64,000 nucleotides of DNA. Origin: Planctomycetota bacterium. Its GTDB lineage: Bacteria > Planctomycetota > GCA-002687715 > CAIWVZ01. Below are positions 41,710 to 61,220 of the stretch, piece after piece; position 1 is the stretch's first letter; every line of letters starts with the position of its first letter. The DNA is taken from contig JBGANV010000002.1 in the NCBI GenBank assembly GCA_044222185.1, positions 96,001 through 160,000 of the forward strand. The letters run 5' to 3'. The notes below the pieces were generated by a model that saw only the letters and a list, made by a program, of their open reading frames with translations, ran no database searches and was not told the DNA's origin. A program made the position numbers and the translations under genes.

Positions 41710-43140
41710 TCAGAAGTCCAGTTGCGTGTACAAGTCCATCCGCACGGCGTTGCCGAGGTGGAGGTCGACCCACTGGGTCTCCCAGTAGATCACGTCGAGA
41801 CCCGCCTTCCAGCCCGAGCCGATGTCGTACTTCGTCGCAAGATAAAGCGTCCAGTTGAGATCACGGTACCCCGGCGCGAGGTCTTCGGAGTCCGCGTTGT
41901 CGATCGTCCCGCCGAGCGTCACGGTGAAACAATCGGTCGCTTGCAAGACGAGCTCGACCCACCCACCGATGGCATCGATCTCGTGCCCGAACGCCGCGCT
42001 GGTCGGGTCCGTGTTCAGCGTCTGGCCGATGGAGCCGCGGACGTCGCCCAAGGCCGATCCGATCTGCGCCTCCCCGCGAAGGCTCACGGGGCCAAAGAGC
42101 GGCACGGTCCAATCGACGCCGCCGAGCCACGCGGTGAAATCGTGATCGCCGCCGTAGGCGCGATCGGTCTCGTATCCGGCCCAGTACCCCCATGCGCCGA
42201 CGGCGATCACCTTTCCATCGACCCAGGACGGCAGTGTCCCCCCGAACCGACCCTGGAAATTCGGATGCCCTGAGTCGAACCCGTCGCGTTCCGTCGACTT
42301 GTAGGCGACAGGCGGCGGGGTCGTGGCGTCCACGTCCTGGTTCTTCACCGAGCCTGTGGGGCCGGCGTGCAGCCGGAACTGGAACGAGCTCGCCTTGGGA
42401 TCACCGCGATCCCAGATGAACTCCACCTGGGGTCGCCGGTGGCCGACGTTGCCCGCGTCCCACATGATCGTCTCGCCGTTCACCGAAGGAATCAGCGGGC
42501 CGATGGCGTCCCAGTCCTGACCGAAGCGGAGGGAGACCTCGTCGAACTGGGCCGTGAAGTACGCGAGCCGCAACCGCGGGACCGGGAGCGATTCGCCAAT
42601 GCCCGCCGGGAAGTTCGCAAAGTCCATCTCCAGCTTGCCCGTCACGTTGGCGCTCCCGATCTTCCCCGCATCGAGGTCGAATCCAAACCGCGTGAGACGG
42701 GAGTCGAAGGCGAAGTCGTCGTCGTTCGGTTGCGCGTTCACCGAATCCTCGGGCACGACGACGGTCGGCGTGATCTGGCTGTCCTGACGCGCGGTGTTGT
42801 AGTAGGCGTCGAGACGGAAGAAGCCGTAGAACTTCAGCGGGAACCCGGAGCGCGTGAGTTGTTTCCACGTGACGCCGTCGGCTACCCGCGCGGACACGGC
42901 GTTCACCTGCGTCTCGAGCGCTTGCCCGGCCTCGGCCTCGCTACGTTCGGCACGCACGGCGCGCAGCTCGGCCTCGAGCGCTTCGTTGCGCCGCTCGCTG
43001 CGCTCGAGCCGCTCGAGGATCCGCTGGGTGCGGTCCTCAAGCTCCTGGAAGCGGCGATCATCGCCGGCCCGCCCGTCCTGGCCCCGAACACACAGCGCCG
43101 CGAGGCACGCGACGCCGATCACGATCCCGGTCGACTTCAT
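41710..43140 (-). CDS. DcaP-like outer-membrane porin
   Basis: Signal peptide, N-terminal coiled coil, KFYGFFRLDAYY, LTRFG, GKLEMDF, PRLRLAY, GQDWD; terminal beta-signal YTQLDF. Confidence 0.8.
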   Translation of the reverse strand: MKSTGIVIGVACLAALCVRGQDGRAGDDRRFQELEDRTQRILERLERSERRNEALEAELRAVRAERSEAEAGQALETQVNAVSARVADGVTWKQLTRSGFPLKFYGFFRLDAYYNTARQDSQITPTVVVPEDSVNAQPNDDDFAFDSRLTRFGFDLDAGKIGSANVTGKLEMDFANFPAGIGESLPVPRLRLAYFTAQFDEVSLRFGQDWDAIGPLIPSVNGETIMWDAGNVGHRRPQVEFIWDRGDPKASSFQFRLHAGPTGSVKNQDVDATTPPPVAYKSTERDGFDSGHPNFQGRFGGTLPSWVDGKVIAVGAWGYWAGYETDRAYGGDHDFTAWLGGVDWTVPLFGPVSLRGEAQIGSALGDVRGSIGQTLNTDPTSAAFGHEIDAIGGWVELVLQATDCFTVTLGGTIDNADSEDLAPGYRDLNWTLYLATKYDIGSGWKAGLDVIYWETQWVDLHLGNAVRMDLYTQLDF

Positions 43141-43173
43141 GATGTGTTCTCCTATTCCTTCGAGTCCCTCGAG

Positions 43174-43491
43174 TCACGGCTTCCGCTCGATCACGTCCCG
43201 TGCCCAGGCCAGCGCGGCCATCGCTCCGGGAAAACCGATCGTGGGGATGAGCAGGAGCAGCGCGTGGTAGATCTCCTCCTTCGAGACGCCGGCCTTCAGC
43301 GCCTTGCGAACGTGCGCGTGGAGGCCGCCCTCCAGACGCGCCGCCCCCGAGATCGCAACCTTCACGAGCGCCCGCGTCTTCTCGTCGAGTGCCCCGGCAC
43401 CATGCGCCGACTGCCCGAGCGCTTCGTAGGCACGCGCCACGTCCGGGAAGGTCGTCTGGAACCACGCGTAGTGAGATGGCAGTTCGTTCAC
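43174..43491 (-). CDS. Carboxymuconolactone decarboxylase/AhpD-like protein without Cys
   Basis: ALDEKTRALVKVAI, HAHVRKALKAGVSKEEI, TIGFP. Confidence 0.85.
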   Translation of the reverse strand: MNELPSHYAWFQTTFPDVARAYEALGQSAHGAGALDEKTRALVKVAISGAARLEGGLHAHVRKALKAGVSKEEIYHALLLLIPTIGFPGAMAALAWARDVIERKP

Positions 43492-43518
43492 GGTGAAAAT
43501 CCCCGTTTTGGGCCTTAG

Positions 43519-44646
43519 TCAGCGGGCGGATGCCTCTGCGCGAAATGCCGCCAGGAATCGCCACGCGAAGAGACCGAGGGCGCCGGTCAGCGGCGCCAGG
43601 GCGAGAAGGCTCGGCAACGTGAAGGTCGGAAGGAGCGGGGGCGCGAGGATCAGCACGATGTCCACGATCCGCCCGGCCAGGAGCACCCAGCCGACGCGGA
43701 GGATCATGTCCTCGTTCCGACGCAGCGTGCGCGGCATCAGCGTCGCGAAGGGCACGAGCCAGTTGAGTGCGACGTTCACCAGCTCGACCGCGGGCCAGCC
43801 TCCGCCGCTCCGCGCGGTGTACCAGGCCGTCTCCTCCGGCATGTTCGTGTACCAGACGAGCATGTACTGACAGAAACGGATGTAGCCCCAGAACAACGTG
43901 AGCGACAGCGCGACCTTGCCGAGGTCGTCGAAGCCATCCGTCGTGATTCCGCGATGGCTCCCGGCTCGACGAGACAACACGGACATCACCATCACGAGCG
44001 CGACGCCAGACAGCGCGATCCCGCTCATGATGAGGAGGGCGTACATCGTGCTGAACCACGCAGGCTCGATGGACTGGAACCAATCGATCGACGCCACGCT
44101 GAACGTGACGGCAAACACGAGGAGGAACACGGCCGAGTCCCGCAACGCCCGGTACCGACTGCCGGACGATGGCGCGGACGACGCGTGCCGGAGGCTCGCG
44201 CCCAGCCGCGAGGCGAGCCAAAGCCACATCGCGAGGACGAGGAGGAGTCGCGCCGCGAAGAACGGCGTGTTCAACCAGCCCGCCCGATGCGACGTGGCGT
44301 GCGCGCCGTCTCCGCCGGCGTGAGCCCAGGAGTACAGCGCGCTCGTGCCGAAGATGATCAGGACGCCGAAAGCGGCTGCGACGGGCAACGTCCGCCCCAT
44401 GGCGTCGATCACCGGTCGGAACGGGATCGCCCAGCGTGCGCTCGTCAGCTCGCGGATGGCGGCGAAGAACGGACCGGCGACGGCAAACCCGAGAAGCGCG
44501 AGGAATCCCATGAGGACGCCGGCCCACGAGGCCCTGGCATCCAGATAGAGCCCGAGGACGAACACGGCGGCGCCGCCGAGGGCCATCGCACGGAAGACGC
44601 GCTCGAGGCCCGACGCCGGGCCAGTCACCGCGGTGGTGCGGATCAT
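43519..44646 (-). CDS. actF: Alternative complex III subunit F
   Basis: About 10 TM; WLNTPFFAAR, SIDWFQSIEPAWFSTMY, DLGK, QYMLVWYTNMPEETAWY. Confidence 0.88.
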   Translation of the reverse strand: MIRTTAVTGPASGLERVFRAMALGGAAVFVLGLYLDARASWAGVLMGFLALLGFAVAGPFFAAIRELTSARWAIPFRPVIDAMGRTLPVAAAFGVLIIFGTSALYSWAHAGGDGAHATSHRAGWLNTPFFAARLLLVLAMWLWLASRLGASLRHASSAPSSGSRYRALRDSAVFLLVFAVTFSVASIDWFQSIEPAWFSTMYALLIMSGIALSGVALVMVMSVLSRRAGSHRGITTDGFDDLGKVALSLTLFWGYIRFCQYMLVWYTNMPEETAWYTARSGGGWPAVELVNVALNWLVPFATLMPRTLRRNEDMILRVGWVLLAGRIVDIVLILAPPLLPTFTLPSLLALAPLTGALGLFAWRFLAAFRAEASAR

Positions 44647-45194
44647 TTCTTCACCTCCCGCTGAAGGGCGCGCACCCGAAGGATCACCTTCCAGCGATCG
44701 TCGGGCGGAAGCTGGGCCGCGTAGGACGCCATGTTGTTCTGGCCCGTCGTCAGGATGTGGAACATCTCGCCGTCCGTGAGTTTCAGAGCATGCGCGGCCT
44801 TCATCGAGGGCGGCGCCTGCATCCCTCGGAGCACGACGGGCGGCGGCGTTTCGCCGTCAGGGCCGTGGCAGGTCATGCAATAGATCATGAAGAGACGCTC
44901 GCCCCTGGCGAGCGCGCCGGCGTCGTCGGCTCTGTAGGGGTTCGTCAGCTCGCGCCCTGCGCGGGCCTGCTCGTCGAGTCCCTTGGCGAAGTCGAAGACC
45001 TCGCTGCCGACGAGAGCCACGCCGGCCGGGAGCTCCACGGATCGCACGTTCGCCTTCACGGCGGGGGTCCGCGCCATGTCCGGGAAGAACTCGAGCCCGC
45101 GAACGGAGCCGTCGGGTGGCAACGCACTGCGCAGCACGAGAAGCAGGGCGACCGCTGCGAGCGTCGCGACGATGATTCCGCGTGATCCTTTCAT
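44643..45194 (-). CDS. actE: Alternative complex III monoheme cytochrome c subunit E
   Basis: N-terminal anchor, FPDM, CMTCHG, DGEMFHILTTGQNNMASYA, DRWKVILRVRALQ; ATGA overlaps on both sides. Confidence 0.88.
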   Translation of the reverse strand: MKGSRGIIVATLAAVALLLVLRSALPPDGSVRGLEFFPDMARTPAVKANVRSVELPAGVALVGSEVFDFAKGLDEQARAGRELTNPYRADDAGALARGERLFMIYCMTCHGPDGETPPPVVLRGMQAPPSMKAAHALKLTDGEMFHILTTGQNNMASYAAQLPPDDRWKVILRVRALQREVKK

Positions 45195-45709
45195 GCGATC
45201 ACCTCCCAGGTCTTCGCGGCGCCGTGGCGAACGAGGAGGGCCTCCACGTCCACCCATTCCGGCGCGTCGAGGCTGCGGGCGACGATCAAGGCGAAGCGAT
45301 CGTCCGTGACGCCCTCGATCTGCGGCGCCGGGAGTTTCCCAGGGCGAAGCCCCGACCTGACGATCACGGCGAACACGGTCGCGAGCCCGGCACAGAGGAT
45401 CGTGAGTTCGAACGCCACGGGCATGAACGCCGGGAACGAGTTCCACGGCTTGCCTCCCACGTCGATGGGCCAGTCCGCCGCCGAAGCCCAGTACTGCAAG
45501 CCAAACCCGGCGGCGAGCCCGAACAAACCAGCGCACAGCGTCACCCATGGAAGGCGCGAGCGGCGAAGCTGGAGGAGATCATCCAGCCCGTGCACCGGGT
45601 AGGGCGTGTGCGCGTCGAGGATGCGGAGATCCGCACGCCGACAAGCACGAGCCGCCGCGAGGAAGGACGTCTCGTCGGTGAAGACTCCGAACTGCAATCG
45701 GCGGTTCAT
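45191..45709 (-). CDS. actD: Alternative complex III subunit D (DUF3341)
   Basis: DAHTPYPVHGLD, DWPIDVGGKP, PAFMPVAFELTIL, TDDRF. Confidence 0.9.
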   Translation of the reverse strand: MNRRLQFGVFTDETSFLAAARACRRADLRILDAHTPYPVHGLDDLLQLRRSRLPWVTLCAGLFGLAAGFGLQYWASAADWPIDVGGKPWNSFPAFMPVAFELTILCAGLATVFAVIVRSGLRPGKLPAPQIEGVTDDRFALIVARSLDAPEWVDVEALLVRHGAAKTWEVIA

Positions 45710-47139
45710 GAGTGCGCCTCCCGATCGTGCCCGCCGTGTCCCTGGCCGAGCACCGTCTTCACCTCGAACATGGAGATCATGGGTCCGAAGCGACAGAAGA
45801 GCAGGAACGCCGTGAAGAAGAGACCGAAGGCTCCGATCATGGCCCCGCCTTCGATCCACGTCGGGCAGTATCCCGCCCACGTCGACGGGAGGAACTCCCG
45901 CGTGAGCGAGGTGACGATGATCACGAAGCGCTCGAACCACATGCCCACGTTCACGACGAGTGAGAGCACGAAGACGGCGGGGATCGAATAGCGGACGCGC
46001 CGGAACCACAGCAGCTGCGGCGCGATCACGTTGCACGCGAACATCGTCCAGTAGGCCCACGCGAACGGACCCGCCATGCGATTCTTGAAGGCGAATTGCT
46101 CGTAGGGATTGCCCGACCACCACGCCGTGAACAGCTCGGTGACGTAGGCGAGCCCGACGATCGTCCCGGTGAAGACCAGGATCCTGCACATGGCGAGGAT
46201 GTGCCGCTGCGTGATGTAGTTCTCGAACCTCATCACGCGCCGCGCGATGATCATGAGCGTGAGCACCATCGCGAAGCCAGAGAAGACGGCGCCGATGACG
46301 AAGTACGGAGGGAAGATGGTGGTGTGCCAGCCCGGAACGATGGACGTGGCGAAATCCATGCTCACGACGCTGTGGACGGAAACGACGAGCGGTGTCGCCA
46401 GCGCGGCCAGCAGCACGCATGCGATCTCATAGCGGTGCCAGGTTCGCGCCGACCCGCTCCAACCGAGGCTGAGCCACCCAAAGAGCTTCTTGCGCAGGCC
46501 GCGGGCGCGATCCCGGATCGTCGCCAGGTCGGGGATCAGGCCCAGGTACCAGAACAGCAGCGAGATCGTGAAGTACGTCCCGATGGCGAAGACGTCCCAG
46601 AGCAAGGCCGACCGGAAGTTCACCCACAGCGAGCCACGCGTGTTCGGATAGGGAAACACCCAGAGCGCGAGCCACGGCCGCCCCATGTGGATCACGGGGA
46701 ATATGCCGGCACAGATGACGGCGAAGATCGTCATCGCTTCGGCGGAGCGATTGATCGAGGTTCGCCACTTCTGCCGGAGCAGGAGGAGCACCGCCGAGAT
46801 CAACGTGCCGGCGTGACCGATTCCGACCCAGAACACGAAGTTCGTGATGTCGAACGCCCAGCCGACGGAGTTGTTGAGGCCCCACGTCCCGATCCCTGTG
46901 GCGATCTGGTAGCCCACGCACCAGACCCCGTACCCGAGTGCGACGACGGCCGCGACGAACGCGCCGTACCACAGCCCCGTCGGTCGCCCCTCGATGGGCG
47001 AGCACACGTCGCGAGTGACGTCCGACGGGCGAAGCCCTCCCTTGATCACGGGTGCATCGTGTGGGTCGACGTCGTGGGCCGGTGCTTGGGCCGTCGAGGG
47101 GCGACTCGCGGGAACATCGATCAAACCGGACGTCTGCAT
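45706..47139 (-). CDS. actC: Alternative complex III subunit C (NrfD/PsrC family quinol-oxidising subunit)
   Basis: WAFDITNFVFWVGIGHAGTLISA, RSAEAMT, IHMGRPW, LWDVFAI, LVVSVHSVVSMDFA, MWFERFVII. Confidence 0.93.
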   Translation of the reverse strand: MQTSGLIDVPASRPSTAQAPAHDVDPHDAPVIKGGLRPSDVTRDVCSPIEGRPTGLWYGAFVAAVVALGYGVWCVGYQIATGIGTWGLNNSVGWAFDITNFVFWVGIGHAGTLISAVLLLLRQKWRTSINRSAEAMTIFAVICAGIFPVIHMGRPWLALWVFPYPNTRGSLWVNFRSALLWDVFAIGTYFTISLLFWYLGLIPDLATIRDRARGLRKKLFGWLSLGWSGSARTWHRYEIACVLLAALATPLVVSVHSVVSMDFATSIVPGWHTTIFPPYFVIGAVFSGFAMVLTLMIIARRVMRFENYITQRHILAMCRILVFTGTIVGLAYVTELFTAWWSGNPYEQFAFKNRMAGPFAWAYWTMFACNVIAPQLLWFRRVRYSIPAVFVLSLVVNVGMWFERFVIIVTSLTREFLPSTWAGYCPTWIEGGAMIGAFGLFFTAFLLFCRFGPMISMFEVKTVLGQGHGGHDREAHS

Positions 47140-47148
47140 GGCGCCTCC

Positions 47149-50109
47149 TCACGACTCCCGGTTGCGGATTTGAGCGAGGTAACGGACCGACGGTCGCACG
47201 TTCAGCTCCTCGAGGACGCGATAGGACCTCACCGACTCCGCCTTCTTCGAGACCGCGCTCTTCGGATCGGCCAGGTTGCCGAACGTGATGGCGCGCGTCG
47301 GACACGACTGCGCACAGGCGGTCGTGAATTCGCCGTCGCGGAGCGGCTCGCCGCGGCGCTTCGCATCAAGCGACGCATCGCGGATCCGCTGGACGCACAA
47401 GCTGCACTTCTCCATCACGCCACGGCTGCGGACGGTCACGTTGGGATTCAGCGCGAGATTCGCCAGCTGGTCGTCGTGGGGGTAATCGAACCAGTTGAAG
47501 CGACGGACCTTGTAGGGGCAGGTGTTGGCGCAATAGCGCGTGCCCACGCAGCGGTTGTAGACCTGCTGATTGAGCCCGTCCTCGGAATGGACCGTCGCGA
47601 GAACCGGGCACACGGCCTCGCACGGCGCATTGCCGCAGTGCTGGCACATCATCGGCTGATGCGCGACGTGGACGTCGTCGCCGTCGCCTTGCGCATAACG
47701 ATCCACGCGCATCCAGGCCATGTCGCGATGACGGCGAACCTCGTCCCGACCGACGACGGGAATGTTGTTCTCCGCCTGGCACGCAATCACGCACGCGGAG
47801 CATCCGTTGCAGGCATTCACGTCGACGGCGAGACCCCAACGAGGCCCGTCCGTCGTGTGGTCCTCGGGCCACATGCCGGGCTCCGGCCCTCCTTCGAGTC
47901 CGAGCGCCTCAGCCGGGTTGCGGCGGAATTCGCCCAGCGATGCCGAACGCACGGCGTCGCGCACCTCGCCGCCCACCGGCGCGAGATGCGGTGGAATATC
48001 GAGGCTCTGATACTCCTGGACCGTCGCCAGTTCGACGTGGGCGGCGGTGCGCGTGATCCGGCACGTGCGAACGTCGGTGCGGACGCAGCGGTCCGCGAAA
48101 GCGAGGAGCGGCGCGACGTTCACGCCGATCACGCCGCCGGCCGTCACTGCGGGGTGGGCGTCGACCCAGGCGGGACCCGCGTTCGCGAAACGATCGGTCC
48201 CCACGCGTCCATGCCCGAGCGGCATGGCGACGACTCGATCGTGCTGTCCAGGCTGCAGATGTACGGGCAGCTCGACGACGGGCGCTCCCCCACCACACTC
48301 GACTCGCACCACGTCGCCTTCCCCCACACCGATCTCACGTGCCGCGAGCGGCGACAACGACACCCACGACTCCCATGCGAGCCGGGTGACGGGGTCGGCC
48401 ATCTCCTGCAACCACGGATTCTGGGCGTGGCGGCCGTCGAGCAGCGCGGCCGTGGGATGGAGCACGAGCGCGAACGTCCCCGCAGCGGGAGGCGACGTCC
48501 TCGGCGCGGCTGCCAGATCGACGGCACCCGCGCCGCGGCCGCCCGTCGCCGGCGCCGGGACGACGACCGAACCCTCGCGCTGCACCTTGCCGAAGAATCG
48601 CCGGAACGGCCCGCCATCCGTGAACCGTGGATGGATCTCGCGCTCCCACGTCTCGCGCACCAGCTCCGCATCGGATCGTGTATCGCCCATCCATCGCGCG
48701 AGCGAGGCGCGAAGCGTGCGTGTCGAACGAAGCGGTTGCGACGCCGGCTGCTGGAGGCAGAACACGCCAGCCTGGGGCTCGGCATCTCCCCACGCCTCCA
48801 GTGCATGAGGCTCGGGGCACACCCAGTGAGCCAGCTCCGTGGTCTCGTCCTTCAACGACGCGACCGAGATCACGAGCCTGGCCTTGCGCAGTTGTTGCGA
48901 CAACCCGCCCGCACCGGGCAGGTCGTACGCCGGATTGCAGCCGGCGACGATCAACAGATCGACGCCGCCTGCGTCCAGCTCGTCACGAAGACCGGCGAGC
49001 TCGGCGTCGGACCCCCGGCGCTGGAACGACAGTCGTTCCAGGTCGAGGGTCGTGCCGAAGGCACCGAGCGCGCCGTTGATGTTGTCGACCCGAAGCTGGG
49101 TGTCCACGTCGTTGACACCGCACACGACCAGGGCGCGGCCGCGCGCGGCGACGAGCTCCGCCGCCAGCCGCGAGAGTTCCGATGCACGCGGCACTTCTCG
49201 CGCGACGTCCGTCGACCCGCCTCGCAGTCCGGACGCGACGGCCGCGTGGAGGGCAGCAATGGCCCCCTGGATTTCCCAGGGCGCGACCCGGAACCGCTCG
49301 TCGGCGCATCCGCCCGTCACCGTCATGCGTGACTCGAATTGCCAATGGCGCGCCATGCGACTCGACGTGTCGTCGGGGTTGCGGCGCCGAGACCAGGCGG
49401 CCGCGTGTTCCACCGGCGAGATCCACGGTCCGAGGAAGTCCGCCTCGAACGAGGCGATGACGTCGGCCCGGTCGAATCGATGGCGCGGGATGGCGCGGAC
49501 GCCGTGCGTCTTCGAGCAGGACTCGGCCATCGCCGAGGCGGACAGCGCGTCGTAGCTCACGTGCCGCGCGTCTCGGAAGCTCTGGAGAAACCGCCCGATC
49601 ACGCGGTTCGTGCTGGGGCTCGTCACCGATCCGGTGAGGAGCCGCACGCGGCCCCCGCCGTCGCGCACCGCCTGCAGTGCCGCGGTGATCTCCCGGTCCG
49701 CGTCTGCCCACGACGCAGGCTGCCGATTGCGCTGCGGTCCGTCGAAGCGGTGAGAATCGTAGAGGCCGATCACGGTCGCCTGACCCACGGCGCACAATCC
49801 GCCATCCGAAACCGGGTGCCCGGGCAGCCCCTCCAGCTTGACGGGCCGCCCGTCGAGGCACGTGGCGCGGACACCGCACCCTGCCGAGCAGCCCTGGCAC
49901 GTCGTCGCGATGGCGTAGCGGCGGCCCGGAACCACTCCCTCGCTCGGCGCGAGCGGCGCCACGATCTTGGACCCGGGAGCGCGCGAGCACCCGGCGACGC
50001 TCGCGGCTGCGATCCCGAAGCCGACCATCCGCAGGAAGGAACGCCGTGACGGCTCGGTCGTCTCGAACGGGAGGATCACGTCGTCGGCGTTGTGGGATTT
50101 CGCAGTCAT
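47149..50109 (-). CDS. actB: Alternative complex III subunit B (molybdopterin-oxidoreductase-like + 4Fe-4S domains)
   Basis: Tat lipoprotein signal SRRSFL...AGC; GRPVKLEG; CNGCSAC, CQHCGNAPCEAVCP, CVGTRYCANTCPY, CSLC...CAQSCP. Confidence 0.93.
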   Translation of the reverse strand: MTAKSHNADDVILPFETTEPSRRSFLRMVGFGIAAASVAGCSRAPGSKIVAPLAPSEGVVPGRRYAIATTCQGCSAGCGVRATCLDGRPVKLEGLPGHPVSDGGLCAVGQATVIGLYDSHRFDGPQRNRQPASWADADREITAALQAVRDGGGRVRLLTGSVTSPSTNRVIGRFLQSFRDARHVSYDALSASAMAESCSKTHGVRAIPRHRFDRADVIASFEADFLGPWISPVEHAAAWSRRRNPDDTSSRMARHWQFESRMTVTGGCADERFRVAPWEIQGAIAALHAAVASGLRGGSTDVAREVPRASELSRLAAELVAARGRALVVCGVNDVDTQLRVDNINGALGAFGTTLDLERLSFQRRGSDAELAGLRDELDAGGVDLLIVAGCNPAYDLPGAGGLSQQLRKARLVISVASLKDETTELAHWVCPEPHALEAWGDAEPQAGVFCLQQPASQPLRSTRTLRASLARWMGDTRSDAELVRETWEREIHPRFTDGGPFRRFFGKVQREGSVVVPAPATGGRGAGAVDLAAAPRTSPPAAGTFALVLHPTAALLDGRHAQNPWLQEMADPVTRLAWESWVSLSPLAAREIGVGEGDVVRVECGGGAPVVELPVHLQPGQHDRVVAMPLGHGRVGTDRFANAGPAWVDAHPAVTAGGVIGVNVAPLLAFADRCVRTDVRTCRITRTAAHVELATVQEYQSLDIPPHLAPVGGEVRDAVRSASLGEFRRNPAEALGLEGGPEPGMWPEDHTTDGPRWGLAVDVNACNGCSACVIACQAENNIPVVGRDEVRRHRDMAWMRVDRYAQGDGDDVHVAHQPMMCQHCGNAPCEAVCPVLATVHSEDGLNQQVYNRCVGTRYCANTCPYKVRRFNWFDYPHDDQLANLALNPNVTVRSRGVMEKCSLCVQRIRDASLDAKRRGEPLRDGEFTTACAQSCPTRAITFGNLADPKSAVSKKAESVRSYRVLEELNVRPSVRYLAQIRNRES

Positions 50110-50118
50110 GGCACGGAC

Positions 50119-50796: not shown

Positions 50797-50797
50797 G

Positions 50798-52396: not shown

Positions 52397-52397
52397 T

Positions 52398-53975
52398 TCA
52401 ACGCCCTCCCGGAGTCACGGGCCTCTTCGCCCCGAGGTTCACCTCGAAGTCGGCGATCGCCGTCTTCGCCACGGCCTCGACCGGGCCATGTTCGATCCGC
52501 CGCGCGAGTGCCGGCGATTGTTCGCGGATCATCCGGCGGATCACCATGTGCATCCAAACGAGGCACACGACGGCGAGCGCCAGAAGGAACATCCAGGTCG
52601 TCGTCCAGATCCCGCTCCACTGGAGCAGGTACCCGAAGAGGATCGGACAGATGAACCCGCCGAGCCCGCCCAGCACTCCCACGATTCCGCCGACGACTCC
52701 GACCTCCGTCGGGAAGTAGTCTGGAATGTGCCGGTAGACGGCGGCCTTGCCGATTCCGAGCGCGATCCCGAGCGCGAAGACGAGCGCCGTGAAGATCCAC
52801 ACGTTCGCCTGGAAGTAGATGTGCGTCACGCCGCGCGCGAGCAGCTGCTTCCGTGCGACCTTGTCACCCACCTTGACGACGGGCTCTTGCCAGGCCTGCA
52901 TGGTCGGCAGCACGAGTGCATCCGCGTCGTGAAAGATGTCTGACTCACCCCCGGCCTTGCGCCGCAGCGGCAACCGCAGGGAATCGAGGACGATCTCGCC
53001 GTCCGCGACCGCCGTGATCGTCCCCGGCTTCGGCGCGATGATCGACTCGCCGGGAGCGCGCACGTCCATGCGCGGAACGACGAGCAAGAGACAGCAGATC
53101 GCGCTGATGCCCAGGATCCAGTACATCACGGCCCGCGCCCCGAACTTGTCCGACATCCACCCGCCGATGGCGCGGATGACGCCCGACGGAAGACTGAACG
53201 ACGACGCGAGCACGCCCGCCGCGGCGAGCGACATCCCATAGACGCTGACGTAGTACGGGATCAGCCACTGCGAAAGCGCCACGAAGCAGCCGAAGACGAG
53301 GAAGTAGTAGAGCCCGAACCGCCAGACCCGCATCCGCCCCAACGGCGACAGGCGCTGGCCGAGCGTCCTCCCCTGCGACGCGGCCGCCACGCGATCGAAC
53401 GTCATGAACCAGAAGATGATCGCCATGGCGACGAGGGCGATGGCGTAGATCTTCGGCATGTTCCGCCAACCCTCGAGCCCTTCCGCGCCAGACGTCAGGG
53501 TCTTGAGAAGCTTGGGTGCGCCGAGGCTCGTGATGGCGGCTCCCGCATTACCCGCGCCGAAGATGCCGAGGGCCGTGCCCTGCCGTTCGCGGGAGAACCA
53601 GACGGACGAATAGGCGATCCCGACGGCGAATGACGCCCCGCTCAATCCAAATCCGAGGCTCGCGAGGGCGAACTCCATGAACGTCGTGCAGCTCGACAGG
53701 AACCACATGGGGATCGCCGAGAGCAGCATCAACACGGTGAAGACCCGGCGACCGCCGTAGCGGTCCGTCAGCACTCCGACCGGCAGGCGCATGATCGATC
53801 CCGTGAGCACGGGGATGCCGATCAGCCAGCCGATCTGGACCTTCGACCAGTCGAAGACGCCGCTGTCGACGAGGAACGTCGCCAGCACTCCGTTCGCCAT
53901 CCAGACGGCAAAGCAGATGGTGAACGCGAGCGTATTCGCGGCGAGGACGAGCCCGGCTTTGGCGGAGTCCTTCAT
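52398..53975 (-). CDS. narK1: Nitrate MFS transporter, NarK1 type, with a large loop insertion
   Basis: NTLAFTICFAVW, PVLTGS, GASFAVG, QGTALGIFGAGNAG, RFGLYYFLVFG, GIGKAAVYRHIP; GGAGGGAG RBS. Confidence 0.9.
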   Translation of the reverse strand: MKDSAKAGLVLAANTLAFTICFAVWMANGVLATFLVDSGVFDWSKVQIGWLIGIPVLTGSIMRLPVGVLTDRYGGRRVFTVLMLLSAIPMWFLSSCTTFMEFALASLGFGLSGASFAVGIAYSSVWFSRERQGTALGIFGAGNAGAAITSLGAPKLLKTLTSGAEGLEGWRNMPKIYAIALVAMAIIFWFMTFDRVAAASQGRTLGQRLSPLGRMRVWRFGLYYFLVFGCFVALSQWLIPYYVSVYGMSLAAAGVLASSFSLPSGVIRAIGGWMSDKFGARAVMYWILGISAICCLLLVVPRMDVRAPGESIIAPKPGTITAVADGEIVLDSLRLPLRRKAGGESDIFHDADALVLPTMQAWQEPVVKVGDKVARKQLLARGVTHIYFQANVWIFTALVFALGIALGIGKAAVYRHIPDYFPTEVGVVGGIVGVLGGLGGFICPILFGYLLQWSGIWTTTWMFLLALAVVCLVWMHMVIRRMIREQSPALARRIEHGPVEAVAKTAIADFEVNLGAKRPVTPGGR

Positions 53976-53989
53976 GACGGCTCCCTCCA

Positions 53990-54685
53990 TCACACCGATG
54001 CGCCGCTGCGGTCGGCCGGCAGCGGTCGGTTCCACAGAACGACCTGCGTCTTGCGCCACAGGTACGGGTTCGGAACGACGAGGATGTGGACCAGTCGGGT
54101 GAACGGGAAGAAACCCATGAGCGCGAACGCATTGAGGACGTGGATCTTCGCGAGGAGCGGCATCCCGGCGATGAACGTCACGTCAGGATTGAAGCGTGCG
54201 AGCGACCAGAGCCACGGCGACATCGACGTCGCAAACCACGAACTCCCCCAGCCGTAGAGCAGCGCCACGCCGGCGCCCGTGCCGACCTGCACGACGAGAA
54301 GGGCGTAGAGGAACCAATCGCCCTTCGACGTGACGCGGCGCGCCTTCGGAAACACGCGCCTGCGGATGATCGTGTTCGCGAGTCCGACGAGCGTGAGGAT
54401 CGTGAACGCGAGTCCCGTCACCTCCAGGAGGAACAAGCGCAGCGGCGCGGCGTTCCACGCGAGGATCACGCCGGGCATGAGGAAGGCAAGCAGGTGCCCC
54501 GTCAGCACGGTGAGGATGCCGTAATGGAAGGGCACGGTGCCCCAGAAGTGCATCTGGTTTTCGAGAAACTGCGACGACAGCGTGGAATAGGTGAACTTGC
54601 GCTGCCGGTAGCGCTGGATCGTGACGATCAGGAAGATCGCCGTGACGACATAGGGAACGACCGCGAACAGCAGGACGTCAGGCAT
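53990..54685 (-). CDS. narI: Respiratory nitrate reductase gamma subunit (di-heme b)
   Basis: SSQFLE, FHYGI...GH, KIH...FPFTRLVH (four heme His). Confidence 0.93.
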   Translation of the reverse strand: MPDVLLFAVVPYVVTAIFLIVTIQRYRQRKFTYSTLSSQFLENQMHFWGTVPFHYGILTVLTGHLLAFLMPGVILAWNAAPLRLFLLEVTGLAFTILTLVGLANTIIRRRVFPKARRVTSKGDWFLYALLVVQVGTGAGVALLYGWGSSWFATSMSPWLWSLARFNPDVTFIAGMPLLAKIHVLNAFALMGFFPFTRLVHILVVPNPYLWRKTQVVLWNRPLPADRSGASV

Positions 54686-55214
54686 GGCTCGCCTCCGCGG
54701 GAGCGACGTGTGATTGGAAGACGCGGGCCGCTGCGCGAAGGGCGCCGGTCCATGGCTTGGAGGCATCACCGAGGGATTCGGTGACCTTCTTCAACGCCGG
54801 AAGCGCCACTTCACCGGCCACGAGCGCGGCCGTGTGCGCCGGCACGCGCCCGAGCAGCTGCAGCAGGTGCGTGACGTGGTCCGGCAGCTCACCGTTCTCG
54901 GGGATGCCGTGCTCGCGCAAGAGCTGGCGTACGCGGACGAGGAACGCGCCGCGGGAGTAGTTCTCGCCGAAGAGCTGCCACCCGAGCTCGAGCGCCCGAT
55001 CGGAGGAGTTGTCGAACGTCCCCGTGTAGGACTCCTCGAGTTCCTCCGTCGAGCATCGGGCGACCCAATCCCGGAACTCCGCCAGGTCGGGCCCGAACTC
55101 CGGAGCCACCGTCGCCAGTTCGGCGGCCGCCTCCAGCACGACGGCTTTCCCGATCGTGCCCGGATATCGCAGCAACTCCGCCGTCAGATCGTGCACGTGA
55201 GGTGAGAGGTTCAT
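54678..55214 (-). CDS. narJ: Nitrate reductase chaperone (delta subunit)
   Basis: LLRYP, YTGTFD, LFGENYSRG, ELPDH. Confidence 0.9.
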   Translation of the reverse strand: MNLSPHVHDLTAELLRYPGTIGKAVVLEAAAELATVAPEFGPDLAEFRDWVARCSTEELEESYTGTFDNSSDRALELGWQLFGENYSRGAFLVRVRQLLREHGIPENGELPDHVTHLLQLLGRVPAHTAALVAGEVALPALKKVTESLGDASKPWTGALRAAARVFQSHVAPAEASHA

Positions 55215-55216
55215 CG

Positions 55217-56704
55217 TCAGACGCTCATGGGGAATTCGCGGAAGCCGAAGCCCGTGCTCGCGCGGTGATCGTGCGGGTCCTCGAGCATCTCGATGGCCTG
55301 CTCGCGTTGCATCGGCGGAATCACCACGCGCTCCTCCATCGACGCGAGGGACGTCATCTTGTAGATCGCGTCGGCCTCGATCGGCGTGCTGTCGGCCTCA
55401 CGTAGCGCTCGCTCGGCCGCGTCGCGCGTCACGTCGCCGACGGTCACGTGGCGGCGCCACAATCGAACGGCCATCTGCTTGCGAAGCGCGTAGCGCACCT
55501 TCCCGTCGTTGCCCGCGGCGAAGAGCCGGCCCAGGTAGGCGATGGGGGCACGCGCCTTCTCGATGTCGCCAAACAGACCGTCGATGTCGTTCGTGACGAC
55601 GTTGCCCCGCGACTGCGACATCACCGGCAGGAGCGGCGGCACGTAGAAGAGCATGGGGAACGTGCGGAACTCCACGTGGAGCGGCAGCGCCAGCTTCCAG
55701 ATCTTCGTGAACGAGTAGATGGGCGACCGCCGTGCGGATTCGATGACGGGCTCGGGCACGCCGTTTCGCCGCGCGCCCTCGATGACCTCGGGGTCGTCCG
55801 GATCGAGGATCAGGTCGCGTTCGGCATCGACGAGTTCGTGATCGGGCTTCAGCGCCGCGGCGCGGATCCGGTCGGCGTCATAGAGCACGTTGCCGAGGTA
55901 GCGAATGCGCCCCACGCAGCTGTGGAAGCACGCCGGCGCCTGCCCGGACTCGAGTCGCGGGAAGCACAGGATGCACTTCTCCGACTTGCCGGTCGCCCAG
56001 TTGTAGTACGTCTTCTTGTATGGGCAGGCGGCGACGCACGCGCGCCACGCGCGGCACCGCTCCTGGTTGAGGAGGACGATGCCGTCCTCACCCCGCTTGT
56101 AGAGCGCACCCGATGGGCACGCGGCGACGCAGGACGGGTTGAGGCAGTGATTGCAGATGCGCGGCAGGTAGAAGAACGCCATGCGCTCGATTTCGAGCAT
56201 CTGCTGGCGCACCGCGGGGTCGAGCCCCTCGAGGTTCGGATCGTTCGCGGCATAGACGGACGACCCGCCGAGATCGTCGTCGAAGTTCGGACCCGACTCG
56301 ATGTTCAACTGCTCGCCGGTGATCATCGAGACCGGCACGGCAGTCGGCTGATCGTCACCCTCGGGCGCGTTGAACAGGTCCTGATACTTGTAGGTCCATG
56401 GCTCGTAGTAGTCGTCCATCGAAGGCATGGACGGGTTGTGGAAGATGTTGGGGATGAGGCGCGTCTTGCTCGTCGATCGCAGCCACAACTCGCGCCCGTC
56501 CGTCTGCCAGCCGCCCTTGTAGCCGGCCTGGTCTTCCCATTTGGACGGATAACCGGTCCCCGGTTTCGTCTCGACGTTGTTCCACCACATGTACTCCGTG
56601 CCTTCACGGTCGGTCCATATGTTCTTGCACGCGACGCTGCACGTGTGACAACCGATGCACTTGTCGAGATGGAAGAGGAGGGAGATCTGCGATCGGACGT
56701 CCAT
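55217..56704 (-). CDS. narH: Respiratory nitrate reductase beta subunit
   Basis: LDKCIGCHTCSVACK, PRICNHCLNPSCVAACP, CRAWRACVAACPY, KCILC...CFHSCVGRIRY; alternative GTG start at 56737. Confidence 0.95.
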   Translation of the reverse strand: MDVRSQISLLFHLDKCIGCHTCSVACKNIWTDREGTEYMWWNNVETKPGTGYPSKWEDQAGYKGGWQTDGRELWLRSTSKTRLIPNIFHNPSMPSMDDYYEPWTYKYQDLFNAPEGDDQPTAVPVSMITGEQLNIESGPNFDDDLGGSSVYAANDPNLEGLDPAVRQQMLEIERMAFFYLPRICNHCLNPSCVAACPSGALYKRGEDGIVLLNQERCRAWRACVAACPYKKTYYNWATGKSEKCILCFPRLESGQAPACFHSCVGRIRYLGNVLYDADRIRAAALKPDHELVDAERDLILDPDDPEVIEGARRNGVPEPVIESARRSPIYSFTKIWKLALPLHVEFRTFPMLFYVPPLLPVMSQSRGNVVTNDIDGLFGDIEKARAPIAYLGRLFAAGNDGKVRYALRKQMAVRLWRRHVTVGDVTRDAAERALREADSTPIEADAIYKMTSLASMEERVVIPPMQREQAIEMLEDPHDHRASTGFGFREFPMSV

Positions 56705-56733
56705 TTGGGATTCCTCGGTTCGTGACTTGGCGT

Positions 56734-59700
56734 TCACCAGCTCAGACGTGGAAGCTTGCGGACGAGGATGTGGGTGTCCCGGTTGCAGCCCGTCGGTCCC
56801 CAGTAATTGAAGTGGTAGGTGAACTGGCCGTATCCGCCGACCATGAGGTTCGGCTTGAGCCGCGTTCGTGTGAGGCTGTTGTGCCCGCCCGCGCGGCGGT
56901 CACCGCGCAGCGGAGATCGCGGCACGCCGTAGGTGCGCTCCGGCGAGTGGTAGATGATGCAGATGCCTCGCGGGATGCGTGCACTGACGGCCGCACGCGT
57001 GACGACGACGCCGTGGTCGTTGTGGACCTCGACCCAGTCGTTGTCCTCGATGCCGATGCTGCTCGCGTCGCGATCGTTCATCCAGAACGGGTCGCAGCCG
57101 CGCGAAAGCGTCGTCATCCGTTGGTTGTCGCCGTAGGTCGAATGGATGTGCCATTTCCCGTGCGGCGTGAGGTAGTTGAGCATCAGCGTGGCACCCTCGG
57201 CCGTGCTGAAGCGCAGATCCGAGTACTCGTCGGGCTTGGGCTTCGGTTTGTAGGTCGGAAGGTGCTCACCGAACTGCAGGTAACCCGGGTGGTCCAGGTA
57301 GAAGTGCTGACGGCCCGTGAGCGTGCGCCACGGCACGAGGTGCTCGCGGTTGTAGGTGAACGGCGCATACGCGCGGCCATCGGTGACGAGGCCCGACCAC
57401 ATGGGGCTGTTCAACAATCGGCGCGGCTGCGATTGGAGATCCTGGTAGCGCATCCGCGTGGCGCGGGTCGGATCTGCGAGCTTCGTCAGCGAGAGACCTG
57501 TCTTCTGCTCCATGTCGCGATAGGAGCGCCACGCGAGCTCGCCGTTCGTGACCGTCGCGAGCGTGAGGACGACGTTGGCCGCGTCCTTCGCTTCGGCGAG
57601 CGACGGATACGACTTGCCGGCCCACGTCTGCGTGGGACCCTCACGCGCGAGGTCGTCATAGAAGTCGTCGACCGGGTACCACGTGCCGTGAGCACCGAGG
57701 CCCGTCTCCCGGACTTTGGGTCCATAGGAGACGAACATGTTGTAGAGGTTGGCGTAGTCACGCTCGACGATCTTCATCCCAGGCATGGTCTTGCCCGGAA
57801 TCGCTTCGCATTCGCCGTTGATCCAATCGCGGATCTGCGGCTGCGCGATTTCCGCGGCCGTGTCGTGGGCCAGCGGTGAACAAACGAGATCCCGCGTCTT
57901 GCCCGGGAGATGTCGGACCGCAAGCTTGGAGAACTCGCGTGCGACGGATTTGAAGATGTCCCAGTCGCTTCGTGACTCCCAGCACGGAGGCACGGCTTCG
58001 GCCAGCGGGTGGATGAAGCTGTGCATGTCCGTCGAGTTGAGGTCCGCCTTCTCGTACCAGGTGGCCGCGGGGAGGATCACGTCCGAGTACAGCGCGGACG
58101 TATCCATGCGGAAATTCAGATCGACGACGAGGTCGATCTTCCCTTGCGGTGCCTGGGCGAGCCACTCGACCTGCTTCACGGAGTCCGCGGCCAGGTCCTT
58201 CGACACGCGATTGGTGTGAGTCCCGAGATAGTGATCGAGGAAGTACTCGTGACCCTTGGCGGACGACATGAGCGCGTTGCCACGCCAGATGAACCACACC
58301 CGAGGCCATGAAGCCTCCGCGTCCGGCCGCTCGATGGCGAACTTCAGTTCGCGGCTCTTCAGGCGAGCGACGACCCAATCGACGATCGCTTTCTCGTCCT
58401 TCGCACCGGCAGCTTCGGCCTCCTTGACGAGGTCCAGCGTGTTGCGGTCGAACTGGGGGTAGAACGGCAGCCAGCCGTTGCGCACGGCGCGCACGTTCAC
58501 GTCGACCGTGTGACCTTCCGCCAGGCTACCCGGCGGCTGGTCCGGCGGCACCGTGTGATAGTCGCGGAAGCTCTTCTCGTACCGCCACTGATCGCTGTGG
58601 ACGTAGTGCCAGCTCGGGCCGTTCTGCAGACGCGAGGGTGGGAACCAATCCTTCGCCATGGCGATGTTCGACCATGGCTCCATCGGCGCGAGCTTCTCTT
58701 GACCGACGTAATGCGCGAGACCGCCGCCGTTCACCCCCACGCACCCGCAGAACATCAGGGCGTGGATCGCCGCCCGATACATCAAGTTCGCGTGATACCA
58801 GTGGTTGATACCGGCCCCGATCACGACCGTGCACTTGCCACCAGTGTGCTCCGCCGTCGACGCCCACTCGCGCGCGAAGCGGATCAACGTCTCGCGGCCG
58901 ACACCGGTGTACTTCTCCGCCCACGCCGGCGTGTAGACGCGATCCTCGTCGTACGTCGTCGGATAGTCGCCGCTGAGCCCGCGCGGCACGCCGTATTGCG
59001 CCATGAGCAGGTCGTAGGCCGTCGTGACGACGGCCTCGGTCCCGTCACGCGTTCGCAGCCTGCGAACCGGCACACCGCGCATGACGGACGTCGCATTGGC
59101 GAAGTCATCCAGGCGGACGTCGACAACGTCGTCGTGCTTCTCGAGGAACGTCAGCTCCGCATCGATCGGCGAGCCGTCCAGGCCGTCCTTGGGCTCGAGG
59201 TTCCACTGGCCCTTCTTCTCCTGCCAGCGATGCCCCATGGAACCCATGGGCATCTTGGGCTTGTCGTCACCCCGATCCCATTGCAGGAACTTCCATTCGC
59301 CGTTTACCTCGGCCGCATAGCGCTCGAGGCGCCCCGCGCGAAGCAGCTGCCCCGCCTTCCACCCGCTCGCCGATCGCGTGAGCTCGACCAGGAACGGCGC
59401 ATCCGTGAACCGACGCGTGTAGTCGAGGAAGCTCGGGAGTTTCCGCTCGTAGTGGAACTCCTTGAGGATGACGTGATTGACCGCCATCCACCACGCGCCG
59501 TCCTGCCCCGCGTTGATCGGGATCCACTCGTCCGAGTACTTCGAGACCTGGCTGAAGTCCGGCGAGAACACGACCATCTTCGAGCCGTTGTGTCGCGCTT
59601 CCGCAGCGAAGTGCACGTCCGGCGTGCGCGTCATGTTGAGGTTCGCACCCATGACGGCGAGGAACTTCGCGTTGTACCAGTCGGCCGATTCGTTGACGTC

Positions 59701-60372
59701 CGTCTGCTCGCCCCACGTCTCGGGTGAAGCGCTCGGCAGGTCGCAGTACCAGTCGTAGAACGAGAGGTTCACACCGCCCATCAACTGGAGCATGCGCGAT
59801 CCCGCCGCATACGAGAGCATGGACATGGCGGGTATGGGTGAGAAGCCGGTGACGCGATCAGGCCCGTGCTCCTTGATCGTGTGAACCGTCGACGCCGCGA
59901 TGATCTCGAGCGCCTGGCTCCAGGAAGCGCGGCGCAGTCCGCCCTTTCCACGGGCGCGTTGATACCGGGCCCGTCGCGCCGGGTCGGACATGATGGATGC
60001 CCAGGCGTCGACCGGGTCTTCGTGCTTCGCCCGTGCTTCCTTCCACAGGTCGAGGAGCGCGCCGCGGATGTACGGATACTTCACGCGCAGCGGGCTGTAG
60101 AGGTACCACGAGTACGAGATCCCGCGCTGACACCCGCGCGGTTCGTAACCCGGCAGGCTCTTCTCGAGCGCGGGATAGTCGAGCCCCTGCATTTCCCAGG
60201 TGACGATCCCGTCCTTGACGTGGATGTTCCACGTGCACGAGCCCGTGCAATTCACGCCGTGGGTGCTGCGCACGACGCGATCGTGCTGCCAGCGGTTCCG
60301 ATAGAACTCCTCCCAAGCGCGGGTCTGAGGTTCGTGCGAGTCCTGGATGAATGGATTCTTGATGTCGCCCAC
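56734..60372 (-). CDS. narG: Respiratory nitrate reductase alpha subunit (cytoplasmic-facing NarG/NxrA superfamily)
   Basis: [12 protein letters not shown]...PRGC (FS0), [29 protein letters not shown]; no Tat signal; GAGGAG RBS before GTG 60372. Confidence 0.93.
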
Positions 60373-60377
60373 GGCTC

Positions 60378-61220
60378 TCAACTCCTCGAGACCATCGGAC
60401 GCCGCACGGCACGGAACCGGCGACGCCACAGGAAATCAGCCACCATGAGCAAGAGCGCCGCACACCCGGCGCTCACCAGGAGGAAATCCACGCGCGACGT
60501 GCCTTGCGCAGCGGTGGAAGTCTCCGCGGCGTTCTTGAGATAGGCGACGACGCCCAGGATCTCCTCGCCTTCGAGGGGATGCGTGCGGAAGACCGGGCCC
60601 ATGACCGGCGACGGCGGCGCCGAGAGCCACGCTGCGATCGCCTTGCGGCCTTCGAGACGGGCGTAGGCCGCCGTCAGATCGGGCCCGAGCGCCCCGCCGC
60701 CCAGTCCGCCGAGAGGCGCCGTCGTGTGGCACGAGTTGCACGGAGGTGCCCCGCTCTTGAACGCCGCGCGGCCGGTGAACAGCGCCTCGCCGGTCACGAT
60801 GTCTGTCGCATTCAGGGGGCGATCGCTGATCGTCAGCCCCATGAAGTGAGACTTCTCGAGCTTGGACTCCGCCGCGATCATCGCGACGAGCTTCCCCGCG
60901 AGCGCCGCGTCGATTCCCGGCAGCGTGGGCATCACGACGCCGCGGGCCTCTTCGAGCAACTTGCGGGCGTACGGGTCACCCGAATCGATGACTTTCTTCG
61001 GATCCGGAATGAACGCCGTCAGCCAGGCGCGATCCCGTCGGTCCTGGACGTTCTTGAGATCGGGGCCTGCGAGACGCCCGCCGCCGATCGTGTGGCAACT
61101 GGAGCAGTTGCGCTTGAAGAAGTCGAGCGTCTCCTCCGAAGGCGCGTCCTGGGCCCAGAGCGTGGGACACGAACTGAAGAGGACGACGAAGGTTGCGAGG
61201 GTCGCGGTGATTCGCGTCAC
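60378..61220 (-). CDS. narC: Di-heme cytochrome c with C-terminal membrane anchor, NarC-like
   Basis: Signal peptide, CSSCH...GPDL...MP, CNSCH...GPDL...VM, C-terminal TM; directly upstream of narG as in Thermus narCGHJIK. Confidence 0.85.

Follow-up and report, generated by a model that had tools for sequence, protein, structure and literature searches.

A widespread bacterial operon that joins nitrate reductase genes to alternative complex III

Background

To our knowledge, alternative complex III (ACIII) is known only with oxygen reductases or photosynthetic reaction centres as its partner, and the respiratory nitrate reductase (Nar) is presented in teaching as an enzyme that oxidises quinol by itself. 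What would a complete set of ACIII genes do inside a nitrate reductase operon? The question is raised by a 64,000-nt stretch of contig JBGANV010000002.1 (assembly GCA_044222185.1, positions 96,001 to 160,000; here called the window), which belongs to the genome of a planctomycete from wastewater sludge (7.08 Mb in 16 contigs, 93.8% complete). An earlier note on this DNA had described 15 same-strand genes at window positions 41710–61220, which start with nitrate reductase genes and continue into ACIII genes, and had proposed a dedicated ACIII that is co-expressed with Nar and whose combination with it seemed uncharacterised. In the analysis presented here the operon type proves to be widespread, conserved and functionally unstudied, and it is less singular than first thought.

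Layout of the operon

All 15 genes were found where the earlier note had placed them, on the minus strand, with gaps of at most 33 nt or overlaps between them. Open reading frame (ORF) calls and matches to Pfam and NCBIfam give a head-to-tail series narC-narGHJI-narK-narK-actABCDEF. It begins with narC (60378–61220; Pfam Cytochrom_C), whose product is a diheme cytochrome c of the periplasm, anchored in the membrane at its C-terminus, followed by narG (56734–60429; start codon uncertain) and narH (55217–56737) for the alpha and beta subunits of nitrate reductase, the chaperone gene narJ (54678–55214; PF02613), narI (53990–54769) for the diheme cytochrome b gamma subunit, and the genes for two NarK-like transporters of the major facilitator superfamily, narK1 (52398–54059; PF07690) and narK2 (50798–52396). 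The true starts of narI and narK1 probably lie later than the called ones. The ACIII genes are actA (50119–50796; Pfam cytochrome c7/c3) for a pentaheme cytochrome c with an N-terminal anchor; actB (47149–50109) for a Tat-exported protein with a molybdopterin-like domain and a four-cluster ferredoxin domain; actC (45706–47139) for an NrfD-like quinol-binding membrane subunit; actD (45191–45709; PF11821 at E 4.3e-48), whose start forms an ATGA overlap with the actC stop; actE (44643–45194; PF13442) for a monoheme cytochrome c; and actF (43519–44646) for a second NrfD-like membrane subunit. Behind them lie genes for a small CMD-family protein (43174–43491; PF02627) and a candidate porin-like outer-membrane protein (41710–43140) with a signal peptide and an N-terminal coiled coil.

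From narC to actF every gap is at most 9 nt or an overlap, the larger overlaps (−52, −92 and −70) being present because the longest ORF was taken for narG, narI and narK1; the gap is 27 nt between actF and the CMD gene and 33 nt between the CMD and porin-like genes. Where the two halves meet, the stop codon of narK2 and the start codon of actA read TGA-C-ATG, with a 1-nt spacer and a GGAGG 13 nt before the ATG. Inside the operon, in positions 41000–60999, nothing that resembles a promoter or terminator rises above chance, and the single promoter-like match in that range sits past the porin-like gene. The earlier claim that no SCO or heme-copper oxidase gene follows actF was confirmed; the CMD gene, the porin-like gene and a gene for a Gfo/Idh/MocA oxidoreductase stand there instead. 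We infer that narC to actF are probably transcribed together as one nitrate-respiration operon.

Conservation of the nar-act linkage

The linkage was surveyed in 401 Planctomycetota genomes drawn evenly across the phylum, that of the host among them; 207 of these have ActD. NarG was matched at E 1e-50 or better in 61, and four weak partial matches, all from one family, were set aside, leaving 57 NarG-bearing genomes. In 41 of these 57, narG and ActD share a contig and a strand, with ActD 7.8–13.2 kb downstream (median 9.8 kb). In nine of the remaining 16 a contig ends close to narG or ActD; among these contig-edge cases, G272 runs from narC to narK2, then actA, then the end of the contig, which brings the linked total to 42. 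Three genomes (G123, G301 and G295) have narC-GHJI-narK-narK without act genes in about 4 kb downstream, and one (G192) bears NarG without ActD.

The comparison was extended beyond the phylum by scanning species-representative genomes with ActB. The best 80 of 122 loci, picked by likeness to the ActB of the window, were kept, and 42 of these 80 have narG, narH or narI upstream of actA on the same strand, in records labelled Planctomycetota, Acidobacteriota, Zixibacteria, Myxococcota and Bdellovibrionota. Five have narK alone directly upstream of actA (four with short flanks), eight have only NarC-like and NarI-like genes before actA (Myxococcaceae type), 11 loci of the same ACIII type show at least 7 kb of upstream sequence without nar genes, and in 14 the flanks are too short to judge. 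The gene right before actA is narI in 26 loci (eight of them the NarI-like gene of Myxococcaceae, without narGH) and narK in 24. In eight loci narK comes right after actF instead, and in two of those, both acidobacterial, it is fused with it: a single ActF::NarK reading frame occupies L084:15361–17721 and L103:15127–17520, with 787 and 798 amino acids. At the other end of the operon, narC precedes narG in all 22 nar-act loci that have enough upstream sequence. The earlier note had proposed a synteny search for actA directly after narK across genomes, and the nar-act linkage is present in both samples. Of the 15-gene unit only a part is conserved: a CMD gene follows actF in one of the 80 related loci and a porin gene in none, and the conserved unit is therefore the 13 genes from narC to actF, with the CMD and porin-like genes as lineage-specific additions.

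The same recurrence bears on whether the junction of narK2 and actA could be an artefact. The genome is a 16-contig assembly. Contigs of four DNA runs were compared with it: the independent sludge runs gave short contigs, none of which is listed as bridging the junction, and an 8,957-nt Logan contig, which may derive from the source sample, covers positions 47638–55000 without a difference. A search for RNA data sets that contain positions 44000–53999 listed none. The junction type recurs in dozens of assemblies from five phyla and so excludes chance adjacency and assembly error, to which we give a negligible probability.

The Myxococcaceae-type loci (L077, L078, L080, L087, L091, L092, L094 and L095) have no NarG, NarH or NarJ. 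In the record of Myxococcus sp. Y35 (L077:5825–9199) the NarC-like protein has 280 amino acids and the NarI-like protein 205 (Nitrate_red_gam, 71 bits), and a gene for a diheme cytochrome c peroxidase stands two genes upstream. That just these two genes stand directly before actABCDEF in Myxococcaceae suggests that NarC and NarI come as a unit with this ACIII type. Some records carry surprising labels: two contigs of 'uncultured Clostridia' (L063 and L068) encode an ActC nearly identical to that of the Blastocatellia loci L062 and L102, and L078, labelled Comamonas sp. KCTC 72670, falls inside the Myxococcus clade. These three labels are probably wrong or the records contaminated. Four genomes of the same family as the host (G048, G160, G257 and G332) measure 2.4–3.8 Mb, compared with 7.08 Mb for the host genome, and lack ActD as well as NarG. 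The host may have acquired the operon; alternatively, its assignment to the family, or the bin itself, may merit a second look.

The ACIII subunits and two types of ACIII

ORFs, family matches and matches to solved structures in the Protein Data Bank (PDB) show all six ACIII subunits, in the order actA-B-C-D-E-F. ActA has five CxxCH motifs and a transmembrane (TM) helix at residues 8–26; every heme motif in it is CxxCH, and no special catalytic heme motif was found. ActE has one CxxCH and an N-terminal TM segment. ActB aligns with 6f0k_B over residues 19–983 (E 6.5e-168), with a twin-arginine motif SRRSFL and Fer4 domains at 764–873. ActC matches 6btm_C (E 1.8e-182) and 6f0k_C (4e-171), and ActF matches 6f0k_F (E 1.1e-38) and, by BLASTP, ActC itself (E 9e-7). 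The 23 residues of Rhodothermus marinus ActC given in Table 2 of PMC8076601, in the portion of that paper available to us, comprise four quinol-site residues, 13 in the half-channel on the N side and six in that on the P side, among them Arg395; mapped by eye, all 23 are identical in the ActC of the window, so that the module that oxidises quinol and putatively conducts protons is intact. The best NCBIfam matches of ActA and ActB are QrcA, QrcB and QrcC, all far under the cut-off.

The ACIII of the window differs from those found beside oxidases. Twenty other planctomycete ACIII loci, hand-picked from the 207 ActD-positive genomes, were compared with it: five second copies in nar-linked genomes, two from genomes with unlinked nar genes and 13 from genomes without NarG. 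In each of the 20, a coxA homologue lies downstream, a few kb past actF. Their ActB proteins are 31–37% identical to that of the window, compared with 43–55% for the nar-type ActB of other phyla and 32–40% for Bdellovibrionota. In a tree of ActC with 95 rows (IQ-TREE quick search, LG+G4), a branch with SH-aLRT support of 99 parts the 20 cox-linked sequences from the 75 others, which were selected by likeness in ActB.

A CxxCxxxC...C pattern marks the FS0 [4Fe-4S] cluster of molybdopterin oxidoreductases. The ActB of the window has this pattern at C71, C74, C78 and C106, and the solved chains 6f0k_B, 6btm_B and 8k9e_B have no cysteine at any of the four places. Among 62 aligned ActB sequences, 30 of 34 nar-linked and 7 of 9 other nar-type proteins have all four cysteines, and none of 19 cox-linked proteins does; the exceptions are the Bdellovibrionota loci L073, L074, L075, L079 and L097, plus L055. 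Beyond these four, the alignment contains no further cysteine that is conserved specifically in the nar type and able to bind Mo. Weak matches of ActB were also obtained to the N-termini of PhsA, ArrA and TtrA, and no PF00384 molybdopterin domain was matched in it at E 0.001 or better. By these sequence comparisons the ACIII of the window is of a type distinct from the oxidase-linked textbook form, and the phylogenetic comparison with oxidase-linked ACIII that the earlier note had called for gives the same separation. Together with the synteny across phyla and the ActF::NarK fusions, the separate type ties this ACIII to Nar and not to an oxidase.

The nitrate reductase half

NarG, NarH and NarI all pass the curated NCBI equivalog models TIGR01580, TIGR01660 and TIGR00351 (1506.6, 610.2 and 114.5 bits against cut-offs of 1084, 524 and 105.55). 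NarG has no twin-arginine motif, which fits a cytoplasm-facing Nar. Aligned to Escherichia coli NarI (3egw_C), the NarI of the window keeps histidines at the E. coli positions 56, 66, 187 and 205, which we take to be the heme ligands, and has an arginine at the position of Lys86, presumably a residue of the quinol site. Since the four heme histidines and a basic residue are kept, NarI need not depend on ACIII. Both transporters find their best or a leading match in TIGR00886 (cut-off 311.7), under which they score 174.7 bits (NarK1, best family) and 287.8 bits (NarK2, which reaches 296 bits with NarU).

NarC has two CxxCH motifs, a signal-like N-terminal segment and a TM helix at residues 246–264. 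Both heme motifs are invariant, and the architecture is kept, in 21 homologues. No NarC model was matched among the NCBIfam models, where its best match is SoxX-like (44.9 bits). Its first heme domain (residues 32–122) finds its best match among solved structures in the extra cytochrome c domain of Flavobacterium johnsoniae ActA (6btm_A, 57–145; E 5.6e-10) and its next in 2l4d_A, where a cytochrome c is joined to an SCO1/SenC protein.

Respiratory complexes in the rest of the genome

No second copy of any act gene was found in the genome by tblastn. Cytochrome b is encoded together with Rieske proteins at four loci, one of them divergent and beside the aa3 oxidase genes, so that the aa3 oxidase of this genome adjoins a Rieske/cytochrome b complex and not ACIII. 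A cbb3 oxidase is encoded on contig C11, and a 794-residue protein of the COX1 family belongs to no named family; cytochrome bd was not found in the genome. With no act copy elsewhere, four cytochrome b loci and the oxidases apart from it, the ACIII is neither the sole complex III nor placed with an oxidase. In the genome (about 94% complete) none of three nitrite reductases was found above the cut-off: the best NirS match has 42.8 bits over part of the model, the best NirK match 55 bits against a cut-off of 296, and the best NrfA match 20.9 bits. A search for the NosZ propeller gave no match, and as the control gave none either, it is uninformative. The suggestion of the earlier note that ACIII might act as a bc1 substitute supplying downstream denitrification enzymes gains little from these results, given the nitrite reductases missing above the cut-off and the four cytochrome b loci.

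The three further Rieske/cytochrome b loci stand beside large multiheme cytochromes (in the regions L017, C1:2009000–2028999, and L018, C1:2118000–2137999). A 536-amino-acid protein encoded there has a weak match to hydrazine dehydrogenase/HAO-like proteins of 66.6 bits, far under the cut-off; it could be an octaheme enzyme for N-oxides that has a bc complex of its own.

Possible electron flow and alternative readings

These results lead us to propose a route by which the two halves could work together. NarCGHJI would be a Thermus-type nitrate reductase, joined by two NarK transporters and a dedicated nar-type ACIII. ActC would oxidise quinol on the periplasmic side, with protons released and possibly pumped, and the electrons would travel along the iron-sulfur chain of ActB to the hemes of ActA and ActE and on to NarC. 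From NarC they would enter the b hemes of NarI, cross the membrane to NarH and reach NarG, where nitrate would be reduced in the cytoplasm. Translocation by ACIII would add to the charge separation of the Nar loop, and more energy would be conserved than by the plain redox loop of NarI. We give the route from quinol through ACIII, NarC and NarI to NarGH about an even chance; the docking of NarC and the direction of electron flow are what we infer for it. NarC is most likely the contact between ACIII and Nar, because narC is present in every nar-act operon with enough upstream sequence, is kept in a NarC-like form together with a NarI-like gene in Myxococcaceae and encodes a heme domain like the extra cytochrome c domain of F. 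johnsoniae ActA. A complex prediction with soluble ActA and ActE and NarC returned no answer (score 0.00) and weighs neither way. More tentatively, and as something we hold possible but would not yet expect, nar-type ACIII, NarC and NarI may form a proton-pumping quinol:nitrate chain or supercomplex that works through cytochrome c. Its ActB, with the extra iron-sulfur cluster, would be an older and less degenerate form than that of the oxidase-linked enzyme, and the module would be the usual way of nitrate respiration in Planctomycetota, Acidobacteriota and several other uncultured lineages of soil and sludge.

Several points weigh against the route through ACIII and NarC. The flow proposed for Thermus and Nitrobacter runs outward, from NarI to NarC (PMC7694296, in the part available to us), and the direction from NarC to NarI is without precedent in the literature covered. 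NarI may oxidise quinol directly, which would make a route through ACIII unnecessary. At least three planctomycete nar operons (L126–L128) include NarC but show no act gene over roughly the next 4 kb downstream, and NarC is therefore not specific to the nar-act linkage. The 11 loci of the same ACIII type with long upstream sequence and no nar genes belong here too, as do the ways in which the material was chosen: the 80 loci and the 75 tree rows by likeness in ActB, the 20 cox-linked loci by hand, and the tree itself by a quick search. Of the dedicated ACIII co-expressed with Nar that the earlier note had proposed, the conserved linkage and the lack of a second ACIII in the genome speak for the association with Nar, and a NarI that need not depend on ACIII speaks against its being required.

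It is also conceivable, though we think it rather unlikely, that the two halves are co-regulated but work in parallel, NarI taking quinol directly and ACIII serving as an anaerobic quinol:cytochrome c reductase for other periplasmic acceptors, for instance the cbb3 oxidase when oxygen is low, peroxidases or, where present, N-oxide reductases; NarC would then be a carrier or branch point. The quinol-site features kept in NarI would suit this, as would the presence of a cbb3 oxidase, the 11 loci without nearby nar genes, the Myxococcus locus in which NarC-like, NarI-like and ACIII genes lie beside a diheme cytochrome c peroxidase gene without NarGH, and the proposal that Thermus NarC is an electron branch to Nir and Nor (PMC7694296, in part). 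However, the genome has four Rieske/cytochrome b loci for such a task, NirS, NirK and NrfA are lacking above the cut-off in the genome, and the embedding of act among nar genes, with ActF and NarK fused in two loci, is hard to explain by shared regulation alone. The conserved FS0 cysteines raise another reading, in which ACIII of this type is itself a working periplasmic molybdoenzyme and FS0 wires the N-terminal site of ActB, for a substrate such as nitrite. The loss of these cysteines in the cox type and the three solved chains, the weak matches to PhsA, ArrA and TtrA, and the suggestion of a novel nitrite reductase for such clusters (PMC10732223, in the portion available) all point that way. 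We nevertheless consider it improbable, in view of an ActB with no PF00384 match at the threshold used and no additional nar-type-specific cysteine for Mo, an ActA whose hemes are all of the plain CxxCH kind, and an otherwise standard ACIII in which the 23 ActC residues are kept.

The chain might even run in reverse. NarG-type and cytoplasmic Nxr enzymes are close relatives, and NarCGHI could be a Nitrobacter-like nitrite oxidoreductase with ACIII driving electrons from cytochrome c to quinone for reverse electron transport. In Nitrobacter a very similar, narC-containing cluster oxidises nitrite (PMC7694296, in part). We consider this highly improbable: the carriers are heterotroph-like and include Myxococcota and predatory Bdellovibrionota, two NarK proteins and NarJ suit nitrate respiration, and the window is rich in genes for sulfatases and sugar oxidoreductases. 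Nothing tested points to autotrophy, carbon fixation genes not having been searched for.

If the route through ACIII, NarC and NarI is true, the number of H+ per electron in nitrate respiration would lie above that of the classical NarGHI redox loop, and the operon hints that nitrate respiration may be wired differently and perhaps more efficiently. Among its carriers are abundant but poorly cultured bacteria of soil, groundwater and wastewater, and the wiring bears on energy yields and on competition within communities that reduce nitrate, such as activated sludge. A natural ACIII variant with an extra iron-sulfur site also offers a handle on the former role of the 'dead' molybdopterin domain. 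The hypothesis is open to direct test in a cultivable carrier.

Relation to known systems

The oxidase-linked ACIII of Rhodothermus marinus (6F0K), Flavobacterium johnsoniae (6BTM) and Roseiflexus (6LOD) has the same six subunits in the same order, and shares with that of the window the pentaheme ActA, the monoheme ActE, the Tat signal of ActB and the 23 ActC residues. In contrast to these complexes, the ACIII of the window sits in a nar operon and not beside cox genes, keeps the four FS0 cysteines and falls on a separate ActC branch. The Qrc menaquinone reductase of sulfate reducers is a relative of ACIII that, like the complex of the window, belongs to anaerobic respiration, but it has four subunits and reduces quinone, whereas the window encodes six Act subunits, ActD, ActE and ActF among them. 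In haloarchaeal pNar, Rieske/cytochrome b proteins, NarB and NarC, are encoded with the nitrate reductase; they are not ACIII. A quinol:cytochrome module next to narGHI is also found in Thermogutta terrifontis, again of the Rieske/cytochrome b (bc1) type and not ACIII (PMC5673643). The idea that Thermogutta terrifontis has ACIII beside nar was rejected, as that paper, in the sections available, gives bc1 genes and no NarC.

For the nar half the nearest likeness is narCGHJIKT of Thermus thermophilus, which has the same order with narC first, GHJI and two transporters (PMC7694296, here and below in the portions available to us). The likeness is one of order and architecture; the Thermus operon has no act genes, and Thermus uses a dedicated NADH dehydrogenase, Nrc (PMC7694296). 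Thermus NarC is described as a diheme cytochrome of the periplasm that is bound to the membrane, has a strong interaction with NarI, is needed for enzyme maturation and is proposed to relay electrons between Nar and periplasmic partners, and Nitrobacter is described as having a very similar narC cluster that runs the opposite way (PMC7694296).

In our literature search only PMC10732223 (FEMS Microbiol Lett 2023) describes the arrangement, although a mention in the ACIII reviews of Refojo from 2010–2013 is possible. In the parts of that paper available, 13 instances are reported from metagenome-assembled genomes (MAGs) of Planctomycetota, with Nar directly upstream of a cluster of six genes annotated as 5-heme, FeS-molybdopterin, NrfD, ActD, 'ccoP' and 'quinone-binding subunit 2'; the cluster matched no described complex, and its authors guessed at a novel nitrite reductase or respiratory module. 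The arrangement is the same as in the window, and those parts neither name ACIII nor analyse two types, FS0 or the wider spread. The nar-ACIII link goes unmentioned in the available portions of papers on Lacipirellula, Limisphaera, MBNT15, an NO-reducing enrichment, Melioribacter, a sulfate-reducing acidobacterium and Thermus phenotypes and of a review of NrfD; genome papers, so far as covered, otherwise treat ACIII as an aerobic component. The statement of the earlier note that the combination was uncharacterised thus stands as regards function, for which no study was met with in this search, but the arrangement itself is already in print (PMC10732223).

Upstream control

Two regulatory genes lie directly upstream of the operon on the same strand. 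A sensor histidine kinase (62867–63994, minus strand; Pfam HATPase_c, HisKA and PAS) is followed by an NtrC-type sigma-54-dependent response regulator (61461–62870, minus strand; Pfam Response_reg, Sigma54_activat and HTH_8), whose start codon, ATG at 62870, overlaps the stop of the kinase gene. In the 240-nt gap before narC, about 45 nt from its start, a sigma-54-like −24/−12 element TGGCAC-N5-TTGAT (61265–61250, minus strand) is the sole match in the window with one mismatch to the consensus. In the planctomycete loci L028, L029 and L064, matches with at most two mismatches stand 48–50 nt ahead of narC; in Myxococcaceae they stand 75–76 nt ahead of the NarC-like gene. Of 29 loci, 6 have a match with at most one mismatch, compared with 12 of 3000 random 300-nt background windows, and the 300 nt that precede actA contain no match with at most two mismatches. 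Four loci (L084, L099, L057 and L048) have homologues of the regulator close to their act clusters. Judging from these motifs, transcription of the operon probably starts at a sigma-54 promoter that the upstream pair of PAS kinase and NtrC-type regulator controls.

Neighbouring genes

The porin of the earlier note is a candidate by likeness. The protein has no Pfam or NCBIfam match, and the support for a porin comes from look-alike clusters: its atlas score is 0.98 to unnamed feature-space clusters, one of which has 40% DcaP members. Two paralogues, with 55% and 50% identity, are encoded at C1:2159949–2161355 and C5:63036–64442; they stand in unrelated gene contexts that give no clue to their role, and no family model was matched by any of the three. 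Elsewhere in the window, positions 28404–35926 encode a 1312-amino-acid protein with a sulfatase domain, followed by MBOAT and AlgX-like genes that resemble those for polysaccharide O-acetylation. Several Gfo/Idh/MocA oxidoreductases with Tat signals are encoded near this region, as is typical of planctomycete genomes.

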